The notes: generated by a model not told the origin, from the letters alone. A stretch of DNA of 17,035 nucleotides from a virus (IMGVR_UViG_2671180417_000010:1-17035), one strand, 5' to 3'; positions 8,805 through 9,080 are shown, counted from the first letter of the stretch. Program-made: numbers and translations.

Positions 8805-9080
8805 GGTCGTCCCAGTTGTCCCAGTTGTCCCACCATTATTTAACCGTTTGATTTTATTGAAAACGCACTCGGCAAGGTGGGACGACTTTCAGCGTTTTTG
8901 GGACAACTCAGGGGGTAAATTGGGACAACCTGAATTTCTTTGCGCTTCAGCCAGGCAAAATACAGGTCGTCCCAAAATGCCCTTAAGTTGTCCCAGAGTT
9001 GTCCCACTTTTTCATAATCAAAACTATATTATTCAATGCGTTACCTTTTCTTGTTATTGAGTGGGACAACCGGGACAACC
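8805..9080. repeat. Iteron array / putative replication origin: about 10 copies of (T/C)GTCCCA(G/C) in both orientations, flanked by AT-rich tracts
   Basis: Direct copies at 8808-8814, 8817-8823, 8826-8832 (9-bp period), 8967-8975, 8988-8997, 8999-9008. Inverted copies (TGGGACAAC) at 8878-8886, 8899-8907, 8921-8930, 9063-9071, 9072-9080. AT-rich stretches at 8781-8800 and 9011-9040. Lies immediately 3' of the replicase gene. Confidence 0.65.

Follow-up and report, generated by a model that had tools for sequence, protein, structure and literature searches.

A two-module iteron array behind a DUF927 helicase gene as the probable replication origin of an EcCIEDL933-like capsid-forming island

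Introduction

What is the function of a dense cluster of short repeats that directly follows a helicase gene in the viral DNA stretch IMGVR_UViG_2671180417_000010 (17,035 nucleotides [nt] in full, hereafter the window)? Judged by its sequence, the window carries an EcCIEDL933-like capsid-forming phage-inducible chromosomal island (cf-PICI), and the helicase gene encodes a 714-amino-acid (aa) DUF927 protein, hereafter Rep. A first-pass annotation had proposed that the cluster is the origin of replication (ori) of the island and that the 714-aa P-loop protein is its cognate initiator. This proposal is supported by the homology of the DUF927 protein to the Rep of Staphylococcus aureus pathogenicity islands (SaPIs), by the fixed layout of the repeats among relatives, and by the co-variation of the repeat word with the Rep C terminus. 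We consider it highly probable that the repeats are the replication origin of the island and are read by the predicted C-terminal winged helix of the adjacent Rep. The interval 8781-9079 is most likely the vegetative origin of the cf-PICI, with Rep as its cognate, self-loading initiator-helicase. The kind of origin is already known from SaPIs and PICIs; the two-part layout is new, and so, apparently, is the repeat word.

An array of 9-bp iterons in two mirrored modules

We found 10 exact copies of the 9-mer GTYGTCCCA in the window, and all 10 are located within positions 8806-9070. Among 200 dinucleotide-preserving shuffles of the window, the 9-mer was present on average 0.27 times and at most 3 times (0 of 200 shuffles reached 10 copies). 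A variant eleventh copy, GTTGTCCCG, is found on the minus strand at 9071-9079, and the 10 exact copies and the variant are together confined to a single 274-nt stretch. The hexamer GTCCCA is not enriched across the window (11 observed versus 7.6 expected), but all except one of its 11 occurrences fall in the cluster, and, therefore, the real repeat unit (iteron) is the 9-mer GTYGTCCCA. The array begins 26 nt past the stop codon of rep and occupies a 336-nt gap between this stop codon (9105) and the start codon of the next open reading frame (ORF) on the minus strand (8768).

Start-to-start distances along the array are 9, 9, 54, 21, 22, 45, 21, 11, 64, and 9 nt. The iterons fall into four sets of alternating orientation, which are arranged around two AT-rich tracts in a window with an overall AT content of 48.8%. 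The first-pass annotation had described about 10 copies in both orientations, and the shuffles bear it out. Its triple direct repeat with a 9-bp period is also present, at 8806-8832 rather than 8808-8832. The adjacent "inverted pairs" that it placed at 9063-9080 are in fact two tandem copies (9062-9079), which run opposite to the 8806-8832 triple. The AT-rich tracts that it saw as flanks do exist, but they lie between the iteron sets rather than outside of them.

As a refinement, the origin is a pair of modules and not one array. Module 1 (M1, 8966-9079) consists of set 1 (two tandem copies), AT-rich tract 1, and set 2 (three phased copies). Module 2 (M2, 8781-8929) consists of set 3 (three phased copies), AT-rich tract 2, set 4 (three tandem copies), and a TATATATA element. 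The two modules are mirror-arranged as inverted repeats, and together they form a rough dyad. A further AT-rich tract at 8769-8805 (73% AT) contains a TATATATATA run. The conserved TTTTTCGTATATATATACAAAAC element at the end of M2 adjoins the last iteron set in relatives of several iteron classes and travels with M2 when M2 is located 3′ of terL. This element may serve to unwind the DNA, to promote transcription of the next gene, or to do both.

Relatives keep the positions and change the word

To the two Escherichia coli relatives L001 and L002 we added a one-genome-per-species scan, which yielded 20 loci across Enterobacterales whose Rep proteins are 55-82% identical (19 of the 20 had readable sequence past the rep stop codon). 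L001 and L002 have 12 copies each of the 9-mer of the window, in the unannotated gap after the DUF927 gene. The spacers between their iterons have diverged, with indels of lengths not divisible by three, and only the iterons themselves are conserved.

Repeats of a short word (4-13 copies) follow the rep stop codon in all 22 compared loci and in EDL933. All 23 relatives open to examination have such repeats in almost unchanged places. Counted from the stop codon, the repeats are located at about +26/+35, then, after an AT-rich gap, at +101/+112/+133/+154 and about +192/+214/+235, and, after another AT-rich gap, at about +275-300. The +26/+35 positions are filled in the 22 loci whatever the iteron word, and orientation alternates alike throughout. 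The equivalents of set 2 have three to four copies at about the four positions from +101 to +154, and the equivalent of AT-rich tract 1 is a gap between iteron sets in all relatives compared. The words themselves are lineage-specific: besides GTYGTCCCA, we found CTTGTCCCA (E. albertii), CTTRTCCCA (2 loci), TAACCCAC (2 loci), TAACCCGCA, GTTGGTTCA (12 loci), CGTGGTTCA (1 locus), and NCGGTTCA (1 locus), while the word of EDL933 is TGCGGGTTAY. Such a combination of a constant layout and changing words should be expected of a binding-site array for a diversifying protein.

The word co-varies with the C-terminal domain of Rep

Rep consists of an N-terminal module of ~150 aa, a DUF927 P-loop core (residues 171-438), and a predicted C-terminal winged-helix domain. 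It matches Pfam DUF927 (E = 1.9e−48) and has no D5_N, Pox_D5, or Toprim match. In the PDB, Rep is similar to SaPI Rep (8TCH, phmmer E = 2.2e−13) and Cch (5DGK, E = 0.003), and it also matches NCBIfam Cch1 (E = 9e−10) and PHROG 1139 "DNA primase" (E = 2e−171). The best protein match to the whole Rep is 89% identical. An AlphaFold2 (AF2) model of residues 585-714, built from 90 homologues, has a predicted local distance difference test score (pLDDT) of 85 and a predicted template modeling score (pTM) of 0.80. Its secondary structure elements are, in order, a long helix, three short strands, two helices, and two strands, which fits a winged-helix fold, and the modeled C-terminal stretch is closest to the 8TCH chain. 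We propose that residues 585-714 are the iteron reader.

Up to residue ~620, the Rep proteins of all relatives are 60-95% identical to that of the window. Over the last ~90 residues, identity is 88-98% when the relative has the same or nearly the same word, 57-70% when the word is CTTRTCCCA, and 28-45% with other words. Across all pairs of Rep proteins, the mean identity of residues 625-706 is 80% within an iteron class versus 44% between classes, compared to 83% versus 76% for the core. A comparison of the iteron word with the specificity region of the replicase across islands had been put forward as a check by the first-pass annotation; the word co-varies with the last ~90 residues. Most of the variable residues map to the last two strands and to the loop that connects these strands, taken to be the wing (KKPTSGKGWQIRTPRLKHLKGARLRVY in the window).

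Recombinant islands permit a sharper comparison. In blastn searches of the window against L024 and L023, positions 9600-10800 are 98-100% identical, positions 8700-9299 have no match, and positions 12600-15650, at the integrase end, are ~99.9% identical. In the recombinant pair, in which an otherwise near-identical island has an unrelated word, TerS, TerL, and the integrase are 100% identical, and, therefore, these three proteins are ruled out as readers of the repeats. L001 combines the word and C-terminal domain of the window with an EDL933-type small ORF and no annotated PerC. The type of the small ORF downstream of the origin is thus not coupled to iteron class, and neither the small ORF nor PerC is the reader. 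Nature has carried out a domain swap in these islands: at the DNA level, the Rep core and its counterpart in an O157-type cf-PICI are 98-100% identical, while the C-terminal domain and the iterons are unrelated. The swap therefore localizes the DNA-specificity determinant to Rep residues ~605-714. EcCIEDL933, the prototype cf-PICI, differs from the window in its word, and its last ~110 Rep residues and origin have no DNA similarity to the window.

From these sequence comparisons, we infer that the iteron word and the C-terminal domain of Rep are inherited and exchanged as one specificity cassette at 8470-9437. Islands that are otherwise near-identical lack DNA similarity to the cassette. No match to it was found in the phage collection, and its only match among plasmids is a 76-nt segment inside rep. 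The replicon of the island can be annotated with confidence. It represents a rare specificity class, given that just 18 of the 5,426 complete E. coli genomes contain a match to the origin region. Pairs of matched Rep and ori would determine which co-resident satellites are able to replicate independently, which matters for cf-PICI biology and for the engineering of delivery vehicles.

The two modules can be separated

The separability of the modules was examined in IMG/VR scans with the tandem iterons of two other classes. Among loci with the EDL933 word, 12 have at least 9 copies after rep, 28 have only 4-8 copies there, and 23 have an array of 4-8 copies just 3′ of terL or of the small ORF that follows it. 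Five loci (L204, L207, L213, L214, and L235) have both arrays on one element; the arrays are separated by 8-9 kb and keep the same relative orientation. Nucleotides 1-190 of the contiguous EDL933 origin are 92% identical to M1 of L204, and nucleotides 245-398 are 80% identical to its M2, including the TATATATA element. M1 and M2 of L204 are ~8 kb apart. In the split elements, the block of genes from ssb to terL therefore sits between the origin halves. The 36-nt central spacer of the window is in the equivalent place of the 8-9-kb late-gene block of the split-origin relatives. Some relatives of class GTTGGTTCA have only M1 within the 4-kb flank.

The two arrays of L204 are located at 3498-3621 and 11581-11734, and 18 further loci (for example, L188, L191, and L208) are grouped with the split relatives.

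Comparison with characterized origins and a proposed mechanism

In SaPIs, 6-12 iterons are located directly 3′ of rep, and an AT-rich region is bordered on either side by two or more of them in opposite orientation; the C-terminal winged helix of SaPI Rep recognizes these iterons, and Rep self-loads without a separate loader (PMC9371898). The origins of SaPIbov1, SaPI1, and SaPI5 are those of Ubeda 2007 and 2012, as cited in PMC9371898. The window resembles this organization in several respects. Its array starts 26 nt past the rep stop codon, and opposed iteron sets surround an AT-rich tract twice (two minus-strand and three plus-strand copies around the tract with 74.5% AT, and three of each around the tract with 62% AT). 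Its Rep is a ring helicase homologous to SaPI Rep and Cch, with a C-terminal winged helix that is predicted from the model to read the iterons, and, as in SaPIs, the iteron sequence is matched to the specificity determinant of Rep. The window differs from SaPIs in having a Gram-negative host, two inverted iteron/AT modules rather than one, and a Rep with an extra N-terminal module of ~150 aa and only ~11% identity in the C-terminal domain.

Gram-negative PICIs share the rep-ori organization, and the rep-ori of EcCICFT073 drives plasmid replication (PMC6092414; Fillol-Salom et al. 2018). The island in the window belongs to the same family and has the same gene order (int, alpA, …, DUF4222, rep, ori, small ORF, ssb, perC). 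EcCICFT073 integrates between ycfD (roxA) and phoQ, the site that is occupied by EcCIEDL933. Unlike the Rep of the window, the EcCICFT073 protein is of the D5_N/DUF5906/Pox_D5 type (superfamily 3 [SF3]-like) rather than DUF927, with only residues 1 to ~150 in common (66% identity), and its iterons are CTRTCTACC-like. The DUF927 type is structurally closer to SaPI Rep than is the D5 type of EcCICFT073. In the cf-PICI literature that we examined, iterons are unmentioned, and full-text searches with the iteron words returned primer sequences only. The supplements of PMC6092414 list no iteron sequences.

The satellite P4 is a more distant model. Its ori, crr, and alpha protein were reportedly described by Flensburg and Calendar in 1987, by Ziegelin et al. 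in 1993 and 1995, and by Yeo et al. in 2002. P4 alpha combines a primase, a D5-type SF3 helicase, and a C-terminal winged-helix origin-binding domain; it requires both ori and the distant crr, and the P4 iteron is TGTTCACC. The window shares with P4 a helicase initiator with a (predicted) C-terminal winged helix, short iterons in both orientations, a C4-type antisense RNA, and an Icd-like gene, and many of its relatives place two modules kilobases apart, as are ori and crr. However, its initiator is not alpha-like (DUF927 only, the D5 type being found in EcCICFT073 instead), and the modules of the window itself are adjacent (8806-8929 and 8966-9079). Of the two models named in the first-pass annotation, SaPI/PICI is thus the closer one and P4 the less apt, since the helicase is Cch/SaPI-Rep-like and not D5-type.

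Plasmid origins of the F, R6K, pPS10, and P1 RepA type have iterons of 17-22 bp, mostly in direct orientation, DnaA boxes, and a Rep that is not a helicase. The window shares with them repeated initiator sites beside an AT-rich unwinding region, but its iterons are 9 bp long and in both orientations, no DnaA box is present, and the putative initiator is a helicase. Between 8769 and 9104, we found no DnaA box even when up to one mismatch was allowed, and no GATC site. The absence of DnaA boxes fits a DnaA-independent start of replication. An integration host factor (IHF) consensus match is located in AT-rich tract 2; this WATCAANNNNTTR match recurs in L001 and L002, whose iteron word is that of the window, and is not seen in EDL933.

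We hypothesize that replication would begin with the binding of the 11 GTYGTCCCA iterons by the C-terminal winged helices of Rep hexamers, as homology and co-variation suggest. By analogy with SaPI Rep-ori, Rep would assemble on both flanks of the AT-rich tracts via the convergent sets and melt the tract between them, and the helicase core would then unwind the DNA. AT-rich tract 1 (9007-9061) is the proposed primary melting site, on the model of the SaPI ori (PMC9371898).

Alternative readings of the repeats

The repeats, or at least M2, could be operators for Rep or another winged-helix protein that controls the small ORF, ssb, perC, and capsid genes, instead of or beside a role as an origin. 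Set 4 abuts the conserved, −10-like TATATATA element ~25-35 nt upstream of the next start codon, weak sigma-70-like matches are found on the coding strand in both AT-rich tracts, and there is no clear terminator after rep. Moreover, the iteron-binding initiators of plasmids often autoregulate. Yet the promoter scan is at chance level (3 sigma-70-like matches versus 1.2 ± 1.1 expected), and convergent sets around AT-rich tracts right after rep are the published layout of an origin (PMC9371898, PMC6092414). In split-origin relatives, M2 and its TATATATA element are found 3′ of terL, close to where the island ends, and not before ssb or the capsid gene. We regard the operator reading as unlikely, albeit the strongest of the alternatives.

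A role in packaging (TerS binding at a pac or cos site) or as arm sites of the integrase or excisionase is very improbable. Arrays of short repeats are common at pac sites and in att arms, and a six-repeat module adjoins terL in some relatives. However, the word tracks the C-terminal domain of Rep, TerS, TerL, and the integrase are identical in the recombinant pair despite its different word, and the array is ~5 kb from int and ~6 kb from terS.

That the region is protein-coding (8704-9060 on the plus strand, or 8579-8836 or 8840-9007 on the minus strand), with the repeats encoding a peptide repeat, is hardly credible: an open frame of 118 codons is present and the same 18-mer occurs inside coding tandem repeats elsewhere (L028 and L045), but the translation of 8704-9060 has no PHROG match, the longest open stretch across the origin is anywhere between 22 and 99 codons long in the 22 compared loci and keeps to no one frame, close relatives differ by indels whose lengths are not divisible by three, the repeats are in both orientations, and RefSeq annotates nothing in the origin region of four relatives. 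The first-pass annotation had judged this ORF probably spurious, rightly so, and had named conservation of the region as coding as grounds for abandoning the origin; the lack of a conserved frame favors the origin instead.

Several observations weigh against the assignment of the repeats as an origin read by Rep. Co-variation was scored on related sequences that partly share ancestry, and the recombinant pairs are its only independent contrasts. At 9 bp, the iterons of the window are longer than those of SaPIs (5-6 bp). The winged helix is assigned from the AF2 model; a profile of the C-terminal domain has only chance-level matches in the PDB (E ≥ 0.13) and no Pfam match at E ≤ 10. We found no experimentally tested origin of a DUF927-type Gram-negative PICI, and EcCICFT073, the sole tested one, has another helicase. 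Finally, the TATATATA element beside the second module might act as a promoter and not in unwinding.

The same word beside other helicases

The 18-mer GTTGTCCCAGTTGTCCCA is present in 42 IMG/VR stretches, of which L036 is a true relative and four have origin-like arrays. In L058, L067, and L031, GTTGTCCCA arrays in both orientations surround AT-rich DNA directly 3′ of unrelated helicase genes (Table 1), and L027 has CTGTCCCAG-like repeats. The helicases of L058, L067, and L031 have no detectable similarity to the Rep of the window, and an hhalign comparison of the C-terminal-domain profile of the window with the C termini of D5/VapE proteins was negative or negligible (best E = 0.025, probability 2%). 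Relatives of the contigs with D5/VapE arrays were not found among deposited phages. The presence of GTTGTCCCA beside D5/VapE helicases may be due to a shared winged helix that has diverged, to cassette exchange between families, or to coincidence; it hints at the passage of such cassettes, or of a strongly favored DNA word, between helicase superfamilies. The 18-mer arrays of L028 and L045 are coding tandem repeats and were set aside as chance matches.

We tentatively link three readings, namely, split half-origins that are looped together, Rep/iteron specificity cassettes, and the crossing of helicase superfamilies by the cassette or its word; that all three hold jointly is rather doubtful. 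If they do, inverted half-origins would work kilobases apart, in a looped complex of two Rep assemblies similar to that of P4 ori and crr, and the whole late-gene block of split cf-PICIs would be "inside" the origin. A cassette of winged helix and iterons would then create replicon specificity (incompatibility) groups among near-identical satellites. Should both split modules be required, replication of PICIs would be linked to the long-known and poorly understood ori/crr arrangement of P4.

The island and its other features

cf-PICIs are 10-18 kb long and encode an integrase, regulation and replication modules, and their own capsid, protease, portal, TerS, TerL, and HNH proteins, without tail or lysis genes (10.1101/2025.02.11.637232). 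Pfam matches in the window include a tyrosine integrase (14236-15465), DUF927, SSB, PerC, an HK97-type capsid, an S78 prohead protease, a portal, and TerL, and the genes run on the minus strand. An Icd-like protein and a C4-type antisense RNA are also encoded. Over 80-83% of its length, the window shares 94-97% identity with islands found in E. coli O157:H7, EDL933 included, and in other strains. In RefSeq, the gene order in those strains is the same as in the window, with the addition of TerS, HNH, head-tail connector, and head closure genes. Membership among cf-PICIs follows from the genes found and from these near-identical annotated islands; the check for tail and lysis genes covered only part of the small ORFs. 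The island extends over approximately 86-15650 of the window. Features of the origin and its surroundings are listed in Table 1.

Table 1. Positions of the origin components, neighboring features, and arrays with the same word on other contigs (window coordinates unless a contig is named)
Feature	Position	Strand	Description
rep	9105..11249	-	714 aa; DUF927 protein, putative initiator-helicase; annotated Pri-Rep in PICIs
Rep C-terminal domain, residues 585-714	9108..9497	-	Predicted winged helix; ~625-706 is the specificity-variable part
Exchanged cassette	8470..9437		rep codons ~605-714, origin, and first ~100 codons of the small ORF
Iteron set 1 (M1)	9062..9079	-	Copies at 9062 and 9071, GTTGTCCCA and GTTGTCCCG; tandem, 9-bp period
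AT-rich tract 1	9007..9061		74.5% AT; between convergent sets 1 and 2
Iteron set 2 (M1)	8966..9006	+	Copies at 8966, 8987, and 8998; spacing 21 and 11 bp, roughly helical repeats
Central spacer between M1 and M2	8930..8965		36 nt
Iteron set 3 (M2)	8878..8929	-	Copies at 8878, 8899, and 8921; spacing 21 and 22 bp
AT-rich tract 2	8833..8877		62% AT; between sets 3 and 4
IHF-consensus match	8841-8853	-	AATCAAACGGTTA; in AT-rich tract 2
Iteron set 4 (M2)	8806..8832	+	Copies at 8806, 8815, and 8824: GTCGTCCCA, GTTGTCCCA, and GTTGTCCCA; tandem, 9-bp period
Conserved TTTTTCGTATATATATACAAAAC element (M2)	8781..8805		Abuts set 4
Mechanical ORF across origin	8704..9060	+	118 codons; judged spurious
Small ORF downstream of origin	8418..8768	-	116 aa; PHROG 27268 (unknown function)
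L058 array	2028-2290		12 copies; D5_N/DUF5906 gene
L067 array	2056-2324		11 copies; VapE-like gene
L031 array	8644-8897		7 copies; VapE-like gene

The N-terminal domain of Rep has no Pfam match at E ≤ 10, and its PHROG matches are only to "DNA primase" or unknown families. Residues 1 to ~150 (window 10800-11249) are 66% identical to the N terminus of the D5-type Pri-Rep of EcCICFT073 (L025, 5242-5700). Beyond ~150 aa the two proteins are unrelated, and one module is thus common to two helicase families. Rep ends in an acidic tail, QDHDAESD (residues ~704-714; window 9108-9140), and acidic tails terminate the Rep proteins of every iteron class despite their differing sequences. Such a tail might be an interaction or autoinhibition motif. 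AF2 modeling of Rep residues 545-714 from 26 sequences gave a pLDDT of 49, and that model was set aside.

An Rfam scan returned nothing in the origin. Outside the island, beyond its integrase end, the scan matched a sok antitoxin RNA (114 bits) on the minus strand at 16319-16493, which probably belongs to a chromosomal hok/sok locus.
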